Source: an uncultured Myxococcales bacterium
GTDB taxonomy: Bacteria > Myxococcota > B64-G9
Direction: 5' to 3'
DNA length: 64,000 nt
Assembly: GCA_964431605.1 (NCBI GenBank)
Contig: CAYSLH010000001.1
Span: 22,719-86,718, forward strand
In this document: piece after piece, positions 12,230 through 57,916 of the stretch
How the letters are laid out: the number at the start of each line of letters is the position of its first letter
How positions within the stretch are numbered: the first letter of the stretch is position 1
The notes under the pieces: model-generated
What the model saw: the letters and a program-made list of their open reading frames with translations, nothing else
What the model was told of the DNA's origin: nothing
Database searches by the model: none
Made by a program: the position numbers and the translations under genes

Positions 12230-13718
12230 AGTTTTTGTTGGTAACCACCAACACATCACTCGTCTCGTCATCATCGAAAACAAGTATTATACCAGGCAGG
12301 CTGTTAGCACCAGGGCTGTAAATTTGAGCATGGGTAGTCGCCCGAAGCTCCATACTCCATACCGGCTCTTGTGAAAAACCCTTCTCGTCACCTGCAAAAA
12401 GTTGGATAACGTCAGGGGTTTTACCAGAACCTCCTCCTGCTTGGCTCAGCAAAACATCCGGCCGACCATCTCCTGTGAAATCCGCGCCAAATATTGGATA
12501 GATGCCCTTGAGTTCCTGGTTGGAACGAAAATTAACCGAGTAAGAAGAGTTGAGTATGATCTGCGGGTTTTGAGAAGGCAGCCCTTTACGACAGAGGTGA
12601 ACATAGAACTTTACATCGAGTTTGCCCGTCATCAAGACCTGCCCCATGGCCATGATTCCCATCTTTACATATGGCCGCACCAAGTCTGTTATACCGTCGC
12701 CATCCACGTCCACCGCCTTGACGAAAGCACCATAGCCATCGGAGGAGATAACCATGTCGGGCTTTTGGGGTAGAACACAACCTGCGCGGGAGAAAAACAA
12801 AAAAACATGGTTTTCAGCATTGGCGATGCCCCCCGTCGCCTTGTTGAACATTATATCCGCATGCCCATCTCCATTGAAATCAGCAGCACATCCCCTTACC
12901 CTTGTTCCTCCATGTCGTCGCTCCTTGAGGGTAATCAAACCAAAAGAACGAACCAGGTCCGGAACGTTGGGAAACTTGCCTCCTTTTCTTTGAAGAAAAA
13001 CCGAAATACTGTCTTTGGAAAAAAAAATGATATCCTTCCGACTGTCTCCATCGAAATCCATGATGTCGAACCTGGGTAACGCGATTCGAAAAAGAGATGA
13101 AAAGTCTCTGGACGACTTTGAATCCTCAACTGAAGAATACAGGCTCTCCCTTGTCGGGACCCTCATCATGGCATTGAGTCTCCACTCACTACCATGCGGC
13201 TCGTACAGGCTCAACATTCCAATGGGGACAGTTGGTAAAACTATTCCTATTTTACCTTGACCCATATCCACCAAAAGTTTGATCCGTGGAATGAAATCTC
13301 CTCCGGGCAAAGCTGCCAGGGTCATAACCCTGAGTAAACTACGCGGAGTTTTTTCCAGGACTCCACCCTTTTGTCCTTTGAGATATTCGACCCCTGATGC
13401 ACACAGCAACAGCACATCTGCCCTACCATCCCCGTCCACATCCCCAACGTCGATTCCAGCCGTATACCTTGGCAGGGACAACACCTGGTATGCCTGCTTT
13501 TTTTCAACTCTTTCTGCTCCACTATATACGGAGACTCGATGTTTCTGTTTCGGAAATATCCCCTGGCGCCAAAAAACCAAAATTTCGTTATTGCCATCAC
13601 CGTCAAGGTCAGCAGGGACTATGGAGTTTATGTGACCTGGTATCTTCAATTCCAACCTGTCCATAAAGATGCCTGATGCGGCCATGATAAAAAATACCGA
13701 GGAGATTATCCCTGTCAT
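12222..13718 (-). CDS. FG-GAP repeat protein (integrin-alpha-like beta-propeller), membrane-anchored
   Basis: Multiple DxDGDG motifs (DLDGDGNNE, DVDGDGRADV, DFNGDGHADI, DVDGDGITDL, DFTGDGRPDV). N-terminal hydrophobic anchor. Start overlaps the stop of the upstream ABC ATPase (ATGA). Confidence 0.7.
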   Translation of the reverse strand: MTGIISSVFFIMAASGIFMDRLELKIPGHINSIVPADLDGDGNNEILVFWRQGIFPKQKHRVSVYSGAERVEKKQAYQVLSLPRYTAGIDVGDVDGDGRADVLLLCASGVEYLKGQKGGVLEKTPRSLLRVMTLAALPGGDFIPRIKLLVDMGQGKIGIVLPTVPIGMLSLYEPHGSEWRLNAMMRVPTRESLYSSVEDSKSSRDFSSLFRIALPRFDIMDFDGDSRKDIIFFSKDSISVFLQRKGGKFPNVPDLVRSFGLITLKERRHGGTRVRGCAADFNGDGHADIMFNKATGGIANAENHVFLFFSRAGCVLPQKPDMVISSDGYGAFVKAVDVDGDGITDLVRPYVKMGIMAMGQVLMTGKLDVKFYVHLCRKGLPSQNPQIILNSSYSVNFRSNQELKGIYPIFGADFTGDGRPDVLLSQAGGGSGKTPDVIQLFAGDEKGFSQEPVWSMELRATTHAQIYSPGANSLPGIILVFDDDETSDVLVVTNKNST

Positions 13719-18423: not shown

Positions 18424-19918
18424 TTTCTTTTTCCTCTTACTTTGTGTTTCAGTACCTGTTGCTTCCTGCCAAAAAGACAAAACAACCCGAAATTTTTCTG
18501 ACAAAAAAAACGATGTACGTATTTTTAAAAGACTCTGTGGCTTGGAGCTGGCAGAACCATACAATGTTTCATTCAGGCTCGTGGATGATGAGATCACCAC
18601 GACGGTCCAGGGATGCACAGGATCTTTCATTTTGGGCAATCGAGCTTCCACCAAGCCCAAAAAGTGTTCAATCAAAATTAGTGGCCCTTGCGTTTCTGAG
18701 CAGAATATTTTTTCCAGGTATGGGATCAAAGATGCCGATCGGTTCAAGAAGAAATCATTAGGTGAACACCTTGTAAGCATCTCCTACCATGTGCCGGGAA
18801 GATCTTATGGTGTAATCTCCATTGAACCTGCGGTTGAGATACACAGTGATCCATACTCTTTCAGCCAGGATTCGTTGAAATTCGACCTGTCTCATATCGC
18901 AATCCTGAGAAAAAAAAATCATATCCCACTGCTTCGATCACTTGCTCCTGATGGACTGATAAAAATCGTCAACCATGCTGACACTTCGAGACGGTTTAAG
19001 TTTATTCTCGAAAACTACTCAGATGCTCTAAGCAGCATGGAACATGTAAACGTTATTACGTTCAGCTCGAAAAAGAAGGGCAAGCTTTCATATCTTCTCG
19101 AAGGAACTTTACCAGCCAAACAGTCGGCACTGATCAAAATACTTCCGAGAAAGATATACAGACCTTGGAGTTTCGCCTTTGGTGGGGATGTGAAAGACGA
19201 GATAGGTATTTTTCTCCAGCTTCTGGAGCAACTTTTACTGACTCACAGCCCTTTGTTCATTATCGAAGCCGGAGACTACACTAGAAACAGCCTGCCCAGG
19301 GAACTTCATAACTATTTCGAACGAACCAAATGGCTCCCAATTCCAGTTTACTTCGTCAAAGGGAACCATGAAATAAGGGTCCAGGGGGAAAAACACTACA
19401 GTCGGATGTTTGGGCCATCAAGGTATAGTTTTTCCTTTGATGATGTTCTGTTTGTAATCCTGGATTCGACCGACTATGGAACCAATGGCTCAGAGACCGG
19501 CTTTCGTCTTGGCAACGATCAACTTAGCTGGTTGGAAACTGTTTTGAAATCCAACAGGTCTGTGAAGTATTCGTTCGTCTCTCTCCATACTCCCCCAGTT
19601 CCTTTGCACGGCCCATCTCTCCGCCCCAGCTACCCTTCCAACATGATATCCTCAGAGGCAACTTCATTGATGGATCTATCAAAAAAATACTCGGTGACAT
19701 ACGTGCTTTCCGGTCACGCACATCTTTATGCAAGGAAAGAAATAAATGGAACCGTTTACCTCACCAGTGGAGCTGGTGGTGCAAAATTACATACCTATAA
19801 CAAAGTAGATGGGTTCGACTTAGACACAAAAAAACACCTCATGGTCTTTGAAATCACCAATTCAGGAATAAGGGAAGAACGGGTTTTTCTACCCAGAGAT
19901 AAACTACAGAGTGAATAA
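18407..19918 (+). CDS. Metallophosphoesterase (calcineurin-like) lipoprotein
   Basis: Lipobox LLLCVSVPVASC. Phosphoesterase motifs GDY, GNHE, GHAH. Overlaps the upstream gene by 17 bp. Confidence 0.7.
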   Translation: MSWKSDFFFLLLCVSVPVASCQKDKTTRNFSDKKNDVRIFKRLCGLELAEPYNVSFRLVDDEITTTVQGCTGSFILGNRASTKPKKCSIKISGPCVSEQNIFSRYGIKDADRFKKKSLGEHLVSISYHVPGRSYGVISIEPAVEIHSDPYSFSQDSLKFDLSHIAILRKKNHIPLLRSLAPDGLIKIVNHADTSRRFKFILENYSDALSSMEHVNVITFSSKKKGKLSYLLEGTLPAKQSALIKILPRKIYRPWSFAFGGDVKDEIGIFLQLLEQLLLTHSPLFIIEAGDYTRNSLPRELHNYFERTKWLPIPVYFVKGNHEIRVQGEKHYSRMFGPSRYSFSFDDVLFVILDSTDYGTNGSETGFRLGNDQLSWLETVLKSNRSVKYSFVSLHTPPVPLHGPSLRPSYPSNMISSEATSLMDLSKKYSVTYVLSGHAHLYARKEINGTVYLTSGAGGAKLHTYNKVDGFDLDTKKHLMVFEITNSGIREERVFLPRDKLQSE

Positions 19919-41438: not shown

Positions 41439-41673
41439 ACTGGTTTCTAATAATTATCTTTAAAAAGAAACCAAGTAGAAATCATAGGACCTGTTAGATA
41501 CTGGTTTTATGACACAACCTCACAAAAAAAAAGAAAAAAAAGAACACAGTTTCACGTTGATAATCTGTTCTTAACTTGTTGGAAACATGAAAAATATTTT
41601 ATCAACTTTTTTTCCACAGGGTTATTGCCTATCCTTTCCACTTTCTACTAACTTTTTTTACTTCAGTAAATTG
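41439..41673. promoter_or_regulatory. dnaA-dnaN intergenic region with DnaA-box-like TTTTCCACA (41609-41617), TTATCAACT, and an A-tract; possible oriC component
   Basis: Motifs are seen directly. The same TTTTCCACA variant occurs twice just upstream of dnaA. Confidence 0.45.
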
Positions 41674-49448: not shown

Positions 49449-50213
49449 ATGGGTCGAATCATCGCCATAGCGAATCAAAAAGGTGGAGTAGGAAAGACCA
49501 CTACAGCCATCAACCTGGCAGCTTCTCTGAGTGTGGCTGAGCGTCCCGTGTTGTTGGTGGATTGTGATCCACAGGCAAACGCTACAACAGGCTTGGGTTT
49601 TTCCAGGGATGAGCAGCGGAGAAATCTTTATCACGTGTTGTTGAATGAATCTACCATCGACGAAGTGACAGTATTGACGGACCTGGAAAATCTCAGACTA
49701 GTTCCTTCTGATTCAAATCTCATCGGTGCGGAAGTAGAACTTGTGGACATGCAAGGAAGGGAGAGTCTCCTGAAAAATGCCCTTGAGAAAGTCAAGGATC
49801 AGTACGAATATATTATTCTAGACTGCCCCCCGTCGTTGGGTCTTTTGACCATCAATGCGTTAGCCGGTGCGGATGGAGTGCTTGTTCCTTTACAATGTGA
49901 ATATTACGCACTGGAGGGTTTGAGTTCCCTGGTTCAGACCATAGAGATGATTCGAAAAGGCTTGAATGATTCTCTTGAGATCGATGGGATTCTTTTGACT
50001 ATGTTTGATGTTCGAAACGCAATTTCTCATTCCGTGGCAAATGAAGTTAAATCGTATTTTAAAGGAAAGGTGTTCAATTCGACCATACCTAGAAACGTCA
50101 GGCTTTCCGAAGCTCCTTCGTTTGGTAAGCCGGTCATGTTATATGATCCGAGATCTCGGGGATCAGAAAGCTATCTTGCTTTGGCCAAAGAAATTCTATC
50201 ATCATCTAACTAG
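49449..50213 (+). CDS. parA: Chromosome partitioning ATPase ParA (Soj)
   Basis: Deviant Walker A KGGVGKTT. Confidence 0.9.
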   Translation: MGRIIAIANQKGGVGKTTTAINLAASLSVAERPVLLVDCDPQANATTGLGFSRDEQRRNLYHVLLNESTIDEVTVLTDLENLRLVPSDSNLIGAEVELVDMQGRESLLKNALEKVKDQYEYIILDCPPSLGLLTINALAGADGVLVPLQCEYYALEGLSSLVQTIEMIRKGLNDSLEIDGILLTMFDVRNAISHSVANEVKSYFKGKVFNSTIPRNVRLSEAPSFGKPVMLYDPRSRGSESYLALAKEILSSSN

Positions 50214-50233
50214 TTGTTTTATAAGGTGTTATA

Positions 50234-51112
50234 ATGTCATCAGCTAAAAGAAAGGCTCTGGGAAAAGGACTCAAGGCTCTTATTCCTGTAAACGAAGATA
50301 AGACATCTTCAAAGCAGCCCAGCGGGTTGTTTCAATGCCCCATAGACAAGCTCGTGCCTAACGAAAATCAGCCAAGGCAGAGTTTTGATAACTCCAAGCT
50401 GGAAGACCTAACCGAAAGCGTCAGGTCAAAGGGCGTGATACAACCGCTCGTAGTAAGAGCATTGGGTGATGGAATGTTTCAGGTCGTTGCTGGTGAACGA
50501 AGATGGAGAGCGTCGAAATTGGCAGGTCTGGAAAAAGTTCCAGTCGTGGTAAAGAACCTGTCTGGAACGGAGATGTTGGAAATTGCGCTCATAGAAAATA
50601 TTCAGCGCGAGGATCTGAATCCTTTGGAAGAAGCGGAGGCGTACCGCCAGCTCATCGAGGAGCATGGCTTGACCCAGGAAGGTTTGGCGAAACGGGTTGG
50701 AAAACAAAGGTCGTCTGTTGCCAACGCTCTTCGGCTTTTGAAGCTGCCGCAGGAGGTTCAAAAATTTTTACTTACGGGAGAACTATCCATGGGACACGCC
50801 AGGGCAATCCTTGGCGCTCAGGGACAGAGTAAACAAAAGGCTCTGGCAAGAAAGGTGGTTAGAGACGGACTGAGCGTTCGGGCTTGTGAGGAGATGGTTA
50901 GAAGCGCAACATCTCAAAAGAGCGGGCCCAAGCGAGGTTCTTTGAAACAATCAGTTCTCAACGTTACACAGAGGAGATTGGTGGAGGAGTTGCAGCGACG
51001 TTTTGGTACCAAGGTAGACTTGCAAAAGGGTCGAAAGGGTGGAAAATTGATAATACATTATTTTTCTGATGGAGAACTGGATAGGATTCTTCAGGTAATC
51101 CAGGGGAATTAA
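50234..51112 (+). CDS. parB: Chromosome partitioning protein ParB (Spo0J)
   Basis: ParB box GERRWRA and HTH (GLTQEGLAKRVGKQRSSVANALRLL). Confidence 0.9.
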   Translation: MSSAKRKALGKGLKALIPVNEDKTSSKQPSGLFQCPIDKLVPNENQPRQSFDNSKLEDLTESVRSKGVIQPLVVRALGDGMFQVVAGERRWRASKLAGLEKVPVVVKNLSGTEMLEIALIENIQREDLNPLEEAEAYRQLIEEHGLTQEGLAKRVGKQRSSVANALRLLKLPQEVQKFLLTGELSMGHARAILGAQGQSKQKALARKVVRDGLSVRACEEMVRSATSQKSGPKRGSLKQSVLNVTQRRLVEELQRRFGTKVDLQKGRKGGKLIIHYFSDGELDRILQVIQGN

Positions 51113-51114
51113 AA

Positions 51115-51624
51115 TTGGCTTTATTTAAAAAAGAAAAGACCGAACCAGAACTAACGGTGGAAAAAGTCCAAATTCCGTCTGGCCAAAATAAAAACAAGGC
51201 CGTCACCAGGAGGGAGCATACCGTGAGTCTCAAGACCGACGAGATAACAACGATTCTTGGAAAAGGATCCGAGTTCGAGGGCAAATTGAATTTTGAAGGA
51301 ACGTTACGGATCGAGGGAGTTTATTCCGGAGAAATCATCTCCGACTCGGTTCTGGTGGTTGGTGAGGGAGCCAAGGTAAATGCTGAAATCGATATTGGTA
51401 CCATTGTGGTCAATGGTCAGGTTACTGGAAACATCCGAGCAAAGCAGGGTGTGGAAATTCGTGGTTCAGGACGCGTGGTAGGTAATATCGAAACACCGTC
51501 TCTCTATATTGAAAAGGGAGTGGTTTTCGATGGAACATGTAAAATGGGCGGTGCGGGAAAAAAGGAATCGTTCATAAAAGAAGCCAAAGCAGCACCAAAG
51601 ACAGAAGAGAAGGAAAAAAAATAG
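51115..51624 (+). CDS. Bactofilin (DUF583) cytoskeletal protein
   Basis: Beta-helical bactofilin repeats (VVGEGAKVNAEIDIGTIVVNGQVTGNIRAKQGVEIRGSGRVVGNIE). TTG start 3 nt after the parB stop. Lys/Glu-rich C-terminal tail. Confidence 0.8.
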   Translation: MALFKKEKTEPELTVEKVQIPSGQNKNKAVTRREHTVSLKTDEITTILGKGSEFEGKLNFEGTLRIEGVYSGEIISDSVLVVGEGAKVNAEIDIGTIVVNGQVTGNIRAKQGVEIRGSGRVVGNIETPSLYIEKGVVFDGTCKMGGAGKKESFIKEAKAAPKTEEKEKK

Positions 51625-53924: not shown

Positions 53925-54350
53925 GTTTTATTTTCCTGTAACCAATTGATGATTTTTATCAAGATTTTCCAGTTTTGACATACAGGTAGGTATTTAGCAA
54001 ATTGAAACATGCCTGGCTAAAGCCATGACAGAAAAAAATCTAATCTTTCAAAACTTCATTCATGGCCCTTAGAACTGCCTTGATTTCACTTTTTGTATCT
54101 GGGTCTACATTTTGCAGATCTTTTTCTTCATCGAAATTCCAAGCACCAAGTTCCGAGCGAATCCTGTTTTTGGATTCCTCATCACCCTCTCTTGTCTCAT
54201 TACGTATTTTTTCGTACATGAGAAGAACTTTCCTCGCAATACCATCAGTAGACTGAGCTTTTTCGAGAAAGTCCCTAGTGACACCCTGACGTCTGAGTAT
54301 AAAATCGTCAGCCAGGTGTTGAAGTCCTTCGCTTTTGTTGGAGACGACTT

Positions 54351-54782
54351 CTAGTTTTTTTTTTCCGTCTCGGTTGTAGATGCTTCTTTTTTTTCAGAGG
54401 ATTCAGTGGCTTTTTGCTGTTCTGCTTGTTCTTTTGCTATGGTCTGGCGAACCTCGTCCATGTCCAACTCTTTGACCTTTGTGATAATCTCCTCCAAGGC
54501 TTGTGGCGGCAAGGCGCCTGGCTGGAGAAAAATGAGGATGCCTTCGCGGAAGATGCCCAGAGTGGGAATGGACTGTATGCCAAAAGACGCAGCAACCTCT
54601 GGCTGTGCTTCAGTGTCGCATTTGGCAAAAACCATATCAGGATGCTCTTCTGAAGATTTTTGGAATGTTGGTCCAAACATTTTGCAAGGGCCACACCATT
54701 CAGCCCAAAAGTCGATGAGCAGGAATTCACTCTCGTCTATGGTTTTTTGTACATTTTCCTTTGTAAGTTCAATAGTTCCCAT
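54351..54782 (-). CDS. Thioredoxin (WCGPC) with Lys/Glu-rich tail; a 103-codon startless ORF follows in the +1 frame after an A10 run
   Basis: Active site FWAEWCGPCK. Stop TAG is immediately preceded by (A)10 at 54354-54363. The downstream frame stays open to 54040. Confidence 0.85.
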   Translation of the reverse strand: MGTIELTKENVQKTIDESEFLLIDFWAEWCGPCKMFGPTFQKSSEEHPDMVFAKCDTEAQPEVAASFGIQSIPTLGIFREGILIFLQPGALPPQALEEIITKVKELDMDEVRQTIAKEQAEQQKATESSEKKEASTTETEKKN

Positions 54783-54898
54783 GTGCTTCTCCTAAAAGTT
54801 AGTAGGTCGAAAAGAATATATGAACGATTTGTCTTATTTGCAACCCCCCGGGACGTTACTATGAAAGAAAAGAAGAGCCGTTTATAAAATTCTGCGCC

Positions 54899-56416: not shown

Positions 56417-57916
56417 TCAATCCCTCATGGAAAAAATGGTAAATACATGATCATCGACCTTAGCGCAGAAAGCCTTATGGTGTTGGTTTTCGACCAGTAC
56501 TTCACAATTGTCTCCAGCAATTTGGATAACCTGGATCAAATCGAATGCTTTTGCAAGGCTTATATCCAGGGCCTTGGCTGCTGCCTCTTTTACCGTCCAA
56601 ACTCGGACGGCAGCTTCAGTGGCGCCTAATACTGATTTTGAAACCAGTTCTTGTTCTTTCTTGCTAAGAAATAACCTTGAACTCCTGATCACTTTTTCCG
56701 AGAGCATTTCCACGTCGATCCCGATGGGGTATGGGCTGGAGACGGCAATTGCAAAGCGAGGATCATGAGATGCAGCACAGTACCTGGCAGAATCATCTGA
56801 AGATGATAAGATTGGATGAACAAGATCTTCGGCAAGGGTCTCGATTTTCGAACCAGGAGTGCTCCAGTCATCAGATAGCTGTCGTGTCAGAAGTTTCAAG
56901 GCTATCCTGGCACTTCCAAAATCTCTGGCCCTTTTAGGTCCCAAATTACTCCAACGTTTTTTTTCATGGCTCGTAAATATGTAATCATAAAAATCGCACA
57001 TGGAATCCAGGTCCAGGACTGTCAATCCGGTACACACATCTCGCAACCTGGCGAGGGGATCTTCAAGAGAGTCTTTTCGTATCCACTCAGCGGGAGTGAT
57101 CCTTCCAGACGAAACATCCCTGAACTCTGTGTCCATGCATGCTTCTGCCAGGATGCCATCTTTGCGGAAGATGAAGATGTGGAAAAAGAGAGTTTCTCCT
57201 TTTTTCCCTGCAGGAAGGATTCGGCACCAGTATTTTTCACCTGTTTTGCAGGGTGAGTTTACAAACCTCTCCCCGTATCCCACGGGAAAGGTCAGCAATC
57301 CTTCGTACCTTTGTCCCCAGGCGCAAGCTAAGTGGAATGCTCCATCGAGGACGAAAACATTGCCTAGTGGGCCCCAAGGTGTGCGATGTTCGGCCGCGAA
57401 AATTTTCGCCACGGCTCCTGCCTCAGATAGAAAAACAGGTCCGGTAACATTTTGAAAAGAAGGTCCAAATGGAACCAGATCCTTATAGAGTTTTTGTGAC
57501 GAAAACCTTATTCCCACGCCCTCCAGGGCGACAGCCCTTTCTTTGAGAAGGTCAACAGGATCATGAGTACTCGCCTTAGTGCTGGAACCAAAACTTACTT
57601 CAACATGCTTCAGTGTTCTGCTAATTCCTGTTTTTCCAGCTTTTGTGTGAGAGAGCAGATTAGCCTTGATTGCATTTTTAGTTGGATGCAACTCCACAGA
57701 AGCTTTTACAATTGAGGATTCGGGAGGCAGGGGTAGAAACCGGTTGAATCTGGCATTGTGTGAAAACAAGACATTCGGTGGATTTGCGATATCTGACGCA
57801 CAGGTGGCCAAGTATTGAATTGATTCAACCGCTGGAAGAATGGATTTCCCCTCGAATTTATGATCCCTCAAATAAGGGGAGTTGGGGATGTCCAAAGGAA
57901 TTTTTTTTTGGTTCAT
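56417..57916 (-). CDS. Fusion protein: N-terminal PKS-type double-hotdog dehydratase-like domain + C-terminal AcpS/Sfp-type 4'-phosphopantetheinyl transferase
   Basis: HxxxGxxxxP motif (HKFEGKSILPAV) and downstream DxxxH (LDGAFHLA) typical of PKS DH. C-terminal PPTase motifs GIDVE and WTVKEAAAK. ATGA overlap with the upstream thioesterase. Confidence 0.65.
   Translation of the reverse strand: MNQKKIPLDIPNSPYLRDHKFEGKSILPAVESIQYLATCASDIANPPNVLFSHNARFNRFLPLPPESSIVKASVELHPTKNAIKANLLSHTKAGKTGISRTLKHVEVSFGSSTKASTHDPVDLLKERAVALEGVGIRFSSQKLYKDLVPFGPSFQNVTGPVFLSEAGAVAKIFAAEHRTPWGPLGNVFVLDGAFHLACAWGQRYEGLLTFPVGYGERFVNSPCKTGEKYWCRILPAGKKGETLFFHIFIFRKDGILAEACMDTEFRDVSSGRITPAEWIRKDSLEDPLARLRDVCTGLTVLDLDSMCDFYDYIFTSHEKKRWSNLGPKRARDFGSARIALKLLTRQLSDDWSTPGSKIETLAEDLVHPILSSSDDSARYCAASHDPRFAIAVSSPYPIGIDVEMLSEKVIRSSRLFLSKKEQELVSKSVLGATEAAVRVWTVKEAAAKALDISLAKAFDLIQVIQIAGDNCEVLVENQHHKAFCAKVDDHVFTIFSMRD

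Follow-up and report, generated by a model that had tools for sequence, protein, structure and literature searches.

Does a thioredoxin gene that stops directly behind a run of ten adenines encode one protein, the remains of a larger one, or two? This question is raised by a locus in a 64,000-nucleotide stretch of DNA from an uncultured Myxococcales bacterium (GenBank assembly GCA_964431605.1, contig CAYSLH010000001.1, positions 22,719 to 86,718), hereafter called the window. The thioredoxin (trx) frame ends with the codons ACG GAA AAA AAA AAC TAG, and another frame remains open behind the run (A10). The original prediction, made from the letters of the window, supposed that one extra A would fuse the two frames into a protein of approximately 245 amino acids (aa) reminiscent of YbbN/CnoX, and offered three explanations, namely, that both isoforms are made by slippage, that the run contains a homopolymer sequencing error, or that a recent indel has pseudogenised the gene. 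Its description of a frame ending in ...TETEKKN-TAG right after the run was confirmed, but the gene lies on the minus strand and the run occupies 54355..54364 rather than 54354-54363. The continuing frame had been named +1; it is reached by adding one A and hence is the -1 frame. It had also been described as a startless open reading frame (ORF) of 103 codons. The frame is open from 54393 to the stop codon at 54042..54040 and contains 104 codons from the Leu codon that opens it after the run (54354..54352); an ATG is present at 54219, and the part that is truly devoid of ATG, GTG and TTG is limited to the first 45 codons. The fusion itself was borne out in silico, as one extra A in the run gives a 247-aa protein composed of a thioredoxin, a disordered linker and a helical domain.

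The best reading of the collected sequences is that A10 is a site of conserved recoding from which two isoforms result, through slippage of the RNA polymerase, a -1 shift of the ribosome or both; the comparative evidence thus favours the first of the three explanations. One gene would specify a two-domain protein (thioredoxin, disordered linker and helical domain of ~95 aa), whose frame is interrupted by A10 within the linker. Standard decoding would end at the TAG one codon past the run and give a 143-aa thioredoxin; some expression events would bring the remainder in frame and yield the 247-aa fusion. The most likely route would be programmed transcriptional realignment, in which RNA polymerase slips on the T10 template and adds one non-templated A; a -1 ribosomal slip at A10 may contribute, and the two routes are not exclusive. 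The slippage itself, its level, the proportion of the two products and the use of both isoforms are what we infer from these comparisons.

Uninterrupted natural relatives provide the first line of evidence. With the in-silico fusion as the query, approximately 18 uninterrupted proteins of 246-300 aa (P0003, P0004, P0005, P0007-P0011, P0013-P0017, P0020-P0023 and P0124) were matched by BLAST at 99-100% coverage and 42-57% identity, and identities of 40-59% were obtained in an alignment of 19 sequences. These proteins derive from metagenome-assembled genomes (MAGs) of Deltaproteobacteria/Myxococcales, are annotated only as 'thioredoxin' or 'hypothetical protein', and share a common layout consisting of a thioredoxin (Trx) domain, a 'DMDEVR' helix, a variable low-complexity linker and a C-terminal domain of ~95 aa (C-domain). 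All invariant columns of the alignment (WC.PC, DM, D..LRRQG..F, Y, E and RA) are present in the conceptual fusion, and the D..LRRQG..F motif, invariant in the 19 sequences, is encoded in the window by the startless part of the -1 frame. The uninterrupted members differ from the window in having a single frame, Pro/Ala-rich linkers and no A-run, mostly in genomes of 56-70% guanine-cytosine (GC) content, with the exception of the member on contig L018. Judged by this alignment, the fusion is a full-length member of an unnamed family with a Trx-linker-helical-domain architecture. The P0003 gene (267 aa, from a MAG of 70% GC) is followed by a 389-aa rhomboid gene and then by a 157-aa gene; because this gene order is the same as in the window, P0003 is identified as the positional orthologue of the trx/C-domain locus with an uninterrupted frame. 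The original prediction had asked whether the fusion is contiguous elsewhere, and had counted stand-alone orthologues or an unconserved downstream frame as evidence against it; the fusion proved contiguous in these relatives and the downstream frame proved conserved.

The C-domain was found only in thioredoxin fusions or their fragments in an exhaustive HMMER search of 1.84 billion cluster representatives. Used alone as the query in a word-indexed search, the C-terminal part returned only the 59-aa fragment that follows the ATG at 54219 and one 75%-identical 59-aa fragment, and the contiguous homologues surfaced only when the conceptual fusion was the query. Scans for the locus in genomes and in metagenomes returned one locus each, the genome match (L005) being a contig end without the junction. 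Two candidates for additional split genes, P0123 on L012 and P0134 on L019, were rejected as scaffold N-gap artefacts rather than frameshifts. Runs of N at L012:400-430 and L019:445-460 give rise to these false split calls (59 aa and 109 aa, respectively), which mimic truly frameshifted loci.

The closest relatives, with 83-85% identity in the Trx core, are truncated in the same manner as in the window (...AESEKKN* and ...PEAEKKN*). Four diverged lineages of this clade, namely, the window, L004, L011 and L007/L008/L009 (one lineage, from a Myxococcales MAG), have the signature G-A10-Y-TAG-AA, with the -1 frame continuing as KKKLE. On either side of A10, the linker has diverged among these lineages through substitutions and a 15-nt indel; the sole change inside the signature is a C/T difference at 54354, which is synonymous in both frames (AAC/AAT for Asn; CTA/TTA for Leu). 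Between the window and L004, the proportions of synonymous (pS) and nonsynonymous (pN) differences by the Nei-Gojobori method were 0.99 (saturated) and 0.16 for the whole C-domain, and 0.85 and 0.20 for the startless 45 codons, where the codon-position differences were 15/3/30; in the remaining part (54040..54219), pS was saturated and pN was 0.14. When the startless stretch was read in the other two frames, omega (the ratio of nonsynonymous to synonymous change) exceeded 1, and omega between L004 and L011 was 0.13. These comparisons indicate that the downstream -1 frame is under purifying selection, the startless 45 codons included.

The same tract recurs in a second, distant clade. Protein P0135 was recovered by a profile search with the C-domain alignment and is encoded on L020, L021 and L022 (two NCBI MAG assemblies and one Logan assembly). 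Their Trx frame (locus at L020:1-624) reads ACC GAA AAA AAA AAG ATG ACG AAC GCG TAG, with A10 in the same codon phase as in the window; behind the run, the C-domain is again encoded in the -1 frame. The sister sequence L018 (P0010, 261 aa; L018:2088-2873) has the same A10 in frame (ACG GAA AAA AAA AAG CCT...). The frame difference between L018 and L020 amounts to 1 nt (mod 3) and lies outside A10, in variable GAACCCGTAG-like repeats right after the run. Between the C-domains of L018 and its split sister, the synonymous rate (dS) was 0.26 and the nonsynonymous rate (dN) was 0.025, giving an omega of 0.094. A rough neighbour-joining tree of the Trx core placed the L018/L020 pair distant from the window clade, inside the contiguous fusions. 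As far as the assembled sequences tell, A10 is kept in six sequence lineages of two clades and in both frame arrangements.

The run itself is the sole run of at least 10 within the window, for which approximately 0.26 A10/T10 runs are expected by chance (an estimate from 46% GC). It exceeds chance by its placement, because it lies exactly at the junction of two frames that form a contiguous family protein and is kept in diverged relatives. The unbroken series of AAA codons is not forced by the protein sequence, since the Lys codons of the window comprise 637 AAA and 370 AAG.

Standard decoding yields a complete enzyme. The 143-aa product consists of a Trx domain with the canonical WCGPC active site (residues 29-33), a C-terminal helix (DMDEVR...) and a Lys/Glu-rich tail. 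It matches PF00085 (E=7.6e-24) and scores 96.6 bits against TIGR01068, 0.2 bits short of the cut-off of 96.8. An NCBI-style annotation would accordingly give this gene no equivalog name, as TIGR01068 falls just under its curated cut-off. The Trx domain of the AlphaFold2 (AF2) model adopts a Trx fold with a predicted local distance difference test (pLDDT) score >88, and Foldseek matches it to solved thioredoxins with a template modelling (TM) score of ~0.9. Thioredoxins of 135-146 aa that stand alone and carry this helix together with an acidic tail are common, e.g. in Streptomyces; because many of them resemble the 143-aa protein, this short isoform is plausibly functional alone.

The fusion was modelled by AF2 from the 19-sequence alignment at a pLDDT of 87.4. 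The model consists of the Trx fold, a long helix (108-128), a disordered segment (132-152) that holds the recoding site, and an all-helical domain (154-246). Because the recoding site falls in the disordered linker, the number of lysines at the junction should not matter. Modelled alone, the C-domain was likewise all-helical (pLDDT 84.2; predicted TM score, pTM, 0.75). Pfam and NCBIfam searches with the downstream peptide and six full-length relatives returned nothing except thioredoxin, and among the 50 best matches listed for the full AF2 model against the PDB by Foldseek, all align only ~102 residues and are plain thioredoxins. In these models and searches, the C-domain is a small helical bundle without a Pfam, PDB-sequence or specific fold match. 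The resemblance to YbbN/CnoX is limited to the domain order (Trx fold at the N terminus, helical domain at the C terminus) and to an overall size of ~250-285 aa; the C-terminal domain there consists of tetratricopeptide repeats (TPR), whereas here no TPR or Pfam match was found and a long disordered linker separates the domains. The CnoX protein of E. coli is described as lacking a CxxC motif. Membership of the fusion in YbbN/CnoX, as suggested by the original prediction, was therefore rejected, given the absence of TPR, of any two-domain PDB match (Foldseek aligns the Trx domain only) and the canonical WCGPC.

Regarding the route, runs of approximately 8-9 or more A or T are a substrate for RNA polymerase slippage (PMC1088944, PMC3711429), and transcriptional realignment has been inferred for dnaX genes with 10 A's (PMC3711429). 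The locus shares three of the features by which slippage genes are recognised: its A/T run exceeds this length at a frame junction, the run is conserved while its flanks vary, and the frame behind it is homologous to uninterrupted proteins and under purifying selection, as expected of a functional one. In 100-nt folds of five sequences, neither a significant nor a common RNA structure was detected downstream of the run (z of -0.40, -1.08, -0.31, -1.54 and -1.49), Rfam gave no match at the locus, and no GGAGG-like or Shine-Dalgarno (SD)-like element upstream of the run was conserved in the comparison of L004, L011 and L007/L008/L009. All six lineages keep ten A's, three more than a frameshifting heptamer needs. 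The lack of downstream structure and the full ten A's fit polymerase slippage, and we give transcriptional realignment a somewhat better than even chance of being the main route of a two-isoform gene.

Several observations weigh against this interpretation, some against its transcriptional form and others against two isoforms as such. In-phase -1 heptamers are present in both clades (A_AAA_AAC/U in the window clade; A_AAA_AAG in L018 and L020), and ribosomal frameshifting could be the main route instead. The shift would then be mainly translational, a route absent from the explanations of the original prediction, by -1 programmed ribosomal frameshifting (PRF) or by ribosome sliding on poly(A), at A_AAA_AAA or A_AAA_AAC, possibly helped by the adjacent 0-frame stop. 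The phase GAA AAA AAA AAN in both clades places proper X_XXY_YYZ heptamers in the 0 frame (in the window, GAA AAA AAA AAC contains both A_AAA_AAA and A_AAA_AAC; L004 and L011 have A_AAA_AAU), the A_AAA_AAG of L018 and L020 is the motif that works most efficiently in E. coli, and the TAG directly 3' of the heptamer is kept in the window clade. The A_AAA_AAC of IS1 is a proven case without an established stimulator (PMC4066793), and ribosomes are reported to slide on iterated AAA codons (PMC4363877). The failure to find a significant or conserved downstream structure (z from -0.3 to -1.5) makes this route less likely without excluding it, in view of such IS1-like cases, and an upstream SD-like element is not conserved either. 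The three A's beyond the heptamer also argue against it. Furthermore, slippage of RNA polymerase is in any case to be expected on an A/T run of 10 (PMC1088944), so that transcript heterogeneity should exist whether or not the ribosome shifts. A mainly translational shift is thus possible but appears distinctly less probable than realignment by the polymerase.

The other counter-arguments concern the sampled lineages. The evidence is comparative and metagenomic throughout, and the split clade consists of four sequence lineages, all of them metagenomic. P0018 on L010, nested in the split clade with an 83% identical Trx core, has neither the run nor the C-domain; its frame (L010:222-706) ends in ...EEKKED with A6 only and is followed by a different ORF, on a contig of 706 bp covered 1.5x. 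At least one lineage thus apparently dispenses with the long form, which it seems to have lost. In the Myxococcales MAG lineage (GCA_027031935.1), three assemblies break 12-29 nt past A10 (L007:3422-3464, L008:3422-3451 and the end of L009), and the other contig, which carries the C-domain (L005), has no D..LRRQG segment, its frame being open to the contig end; the first 98 nt of this contig (L005:1-98) are unrelated sequence without a BLAST match in the collected sequences. Because the assemblies break after the run and the D..LRRQG segment is absent from the C-domain contig, the long form of this lineage cannot be reconstructed.

Loss of function was considered as an explanation of the split, with an ancestral frameshift in a hypermutable run, a dead or dying C-terminal part and a 143-aa thioredoxin as the only product. 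It agrees with the normal stand-alone architecture of the short form, with L010 and with the separate calling of the parts as ORFs by public gene callers. The downstream frame has nevertheless acquired no stop or indel while its synonymous sites became saturated, with pN of 0.14-0.20 and the 15/3/30 pattern extending to the startless segment, and omega is only 0.09 in the second clade. The run is exactly 10 in every lineage even though homopolymers are mutation-prone. An old pseudogene is largely refuted because the frame would have decayed and a neutral run would have changed its length or gained AAG, and a recent pseudogenising indel is contradicted by the saturated synonymous sites with a pN of 0.16 and by the omega of the second clade. 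Overall, we regard an inactivated gene as very improbable.

Equally improbable is that the two frames encode separate proteins, the downstream frame being translated alone from the ATG at 54219 (59 aa) or by non-canonical reinitiation after the trx stop. A GAGGA lies 11 nt upstream of this ATG, the 59-aa ORF is called in two lineages, and a GTG stands just before the domain in L020. In the window clade, on the contrary, no ATG, GTG, TTG, CTG or ATT is conserved ahead of the motif, and GAGGA is lost in L004 and L005 through synonymous changes. The Met at 54219 is an internal residue in the contiguous homologues and is R, L, F, I or N in some of them. The 45 codons before it are under purifying selection and hold D..LRRQG, so that the 59-aa product would be without half the domain. 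Moreover, the domain is never free-standing, as all short matches result from frameshifts or N-gaps.

Finally, phase variation by A10/A11 flipping in the population, or a plain homopolymer sequencing or assembly error, is very improbable, a sequencing error being rejected: poly-A tracts do slip in replication too (PMC3711429) and three assemblies of one lineage break soon after the run, but the run comprises exactly 10 A's in 13/13 assembled contigs from six sequence lineages and several assemblers and archives (ENA, JGI, NCBI MAGs and Logan; some contigs may have raw reads in common), among them those that represent the strain of the window in ENA, JGI and Logan, with no A11 or A9 consensus and none of the differences in tract length between assemblies that mark a contingency locus, the in-frame A10 of L018 was assembled normally, and it is not within the run that L018 and L020 come to differ in frame.

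Known recoding systems offer partial parallels to the two-isoform gene proposed here. Shigella flexneri mxiE also has overlapping ORFs joined at a homopolymer, where a non-templated nucleotide is needed for the complete protein and standard decoding gives a short product (PMC1088944). It differs in encoding an AraC-type activator with a T9 run; the present gene encodes a thioredoxin fusion with an A10 run, its short product is itself a complete enzyme, and it is known from sequence alone. The dnaX tau/gamma system similarly produces long and short isoforms from one gene at a poly-A site (PMC1088944, PMC3711429). Examples are A9 slippage in Thermus thermophilus, the Chlorobi-type two-ORF arrangement with A10 and -1 PRF at A_AAA_AAG in E. 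coli (PMC1088944, PMC3711429), and ten A's are typical of the dnaX cases inferred to be transcriptional (PMC3711429). As in dnaX, an in-frame arrangement in which a slip gives the short form (compare L018) and a two-ORF arrangement in which a slip gives the long form (compare the window and L020) both occur in related organisms. E. coli dnaX differs in its stem-loop and SD stimulators, none of which was found here, and the proteins are unrelated. Ancient poly(A) frameshifts in the endosymbionts Blochmannia and Buchnera are said (Wernegreen et al. in 2010, cited in PMC3711429) to be kept by selection, the homopolymer frameshift persisting across diverged lineages, purifying selection still acting on the frame behind it and expression being restored by slippage. 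Those frameshifts are viewed as tolerated damage in AT-rich, repair-poor, reduced genomes, whereas the present run lies at a domain boundary in a free-living (Myxococcota-like) genome of 46% GC and the short product is complete.

The features of the locus and of its immediate neighbours are listed in Table 1.

Table 1. Coordinates of the trx/C-domain locus and adjoining genes in the window
Feature	Position	Strand	Remarks
A10 homopolymer, putative recoding site	54355..54364	minus (T10 on plus strand)	seen in the sequence
0-frame stop TAG	54351..54353	minus	one codon after A10; shares bases with CTA GAA (Leu-Glu) of the -1 frame
trx reading frame (0 frame)	54351..54782	minus	ATG 54782 to TAG 54353..54351; 143 aa; tail ...TETEKKN (ORF list)
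Whole C-domain coding region, -1 frame	54040..54354	minus	104 codons (LEVVSNK...EVLKD) and stop
Startless 45 codons of the -1 frame, directly behind the run	54220..54354	minus	no ATG/GTG/TTG; end of linker and invariant motif (GLQHLADDFILRRQGVTRDFLEKAQ...)
Rest of the C-domain and TAG stop (54042..54040)	54040..54219	minus	called as 59-aa ORF P0001 by public gene callers, from ATG at 54219
trx SD-like AGGAG	54793..54789	minus	6 nt before ATG; pattern match
Sigma-70-like TTGCAA-17-TATATT	54843..54815	minus	candidate trx promoter; consensus scan, pattern match
trx expression signals, region as a whole	54783..54843	minus	pattern matches only
Rhomboid protease, 391 aa	52749-53924	minus	PF01694; TPR-like extension at the C terminus; next gene after the trx/C-domain locus
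Gene immediately upstream of trx, 504 aa	54899-56413	minus	N-terminal hydrophobic segment; at least 3 near-identical Cys-rich repeats of ~55 aa

Nothing resembling a promoter or a terminator was detected by the consensus scan in the interval from the trx stop to the C-domain. In the 504-aa protein encoded upstream, the Cys-rich repeat follows the pattern C..GD.RCSGDVIQTC.AD..GCLDW.DTTDCAADN.HCDDSGDVPVC, and the public gene call records no Pfam match for this protein. A parA-parB-bactofilin cluster adjoining gidB lies a few kb away (window ~49449-51624, plus strand, from the gene calls of L001), an arrangement familiar from Myxococcus, and genes for a ketoacyl-synthase, a 4HBT thioesterase and an ACPS-domain protein are located on the other side. 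Three 9-base A/T runs stand in frame within long ORFs of the window, at 18910-18918 (plus strand), 13019-13027 (T9, minus-strand gene) and 57901-57909 (minus-strand gene); two of them lie in open frames of 517 aa and 512 aa, and one lies in codons 3-6 of the 499-aa gene with the ACPS domain. None of these runs breaks its frame, and each is long enough for RNA polymerase slippage. An A9-G-A8 tract (CAAAAAAAAAGAAAAAAAAG) at 41524-41541 lies outside any open frame of at least 80 aa.

The rhomboid/TPR gene stands directly downstream of the locus in the window, L005 and L016, and this synteny is absent in L013, L014, L018 and L020. By inference only, the C-domain may act in docking or in oligomerisation and thereby tether an active thioredoxin to a partner; the product of the rhomboid/TPR gene is a candidate for the latter.

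No report matching this case, that is, a thioredoxin with transcriptional slippage or programmed frameshifting, was found in the literature searches, and the word thioredoxin is absent from the main text of the GeneTack survey. Among the cellular genes of bacteria, in contrast to those of phages and insertion sequences, conserved recoding is known in few families only (prfB, dnaX, mxiE and further type III secretion genes of Shigella, copA and a few more). The present gene would add a thioredoxin-fusion family in which the complete enzyme is the default product and the domain-extended version needs a slip. Public gene calls report two genes here, a 'thioredoxin' and a 59-aa 'hypothetical protein' without meaning, and half of a conserved domain, invariant motif included, is thereby lost to annotation. 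The occurrence of the same tract in frame and out of frame in sister lineages constitutes a natural experiment on the evolution of isoform ratios. We tentatively raise a further, rather doubtful idea, namely, that A10 is a selected device setting the ratio of a free thioredoxin to a tethered one, whose helical domain (D..LRRQG) would dock a specific partner, with the default isoform being flipped, between L018 and L020 and between the contiguous relatives and the window, by 1-nt changes beside a tract that is itself kept; the partner might be the co-located rhomboid/TPR membrane protease. If this is true and slippage becomes more or less frequent with conditions such as the nucleotide pools, the temperature or the speed of transcription, the targeting of a redox enzyme would be set by transcriptional fidelity.

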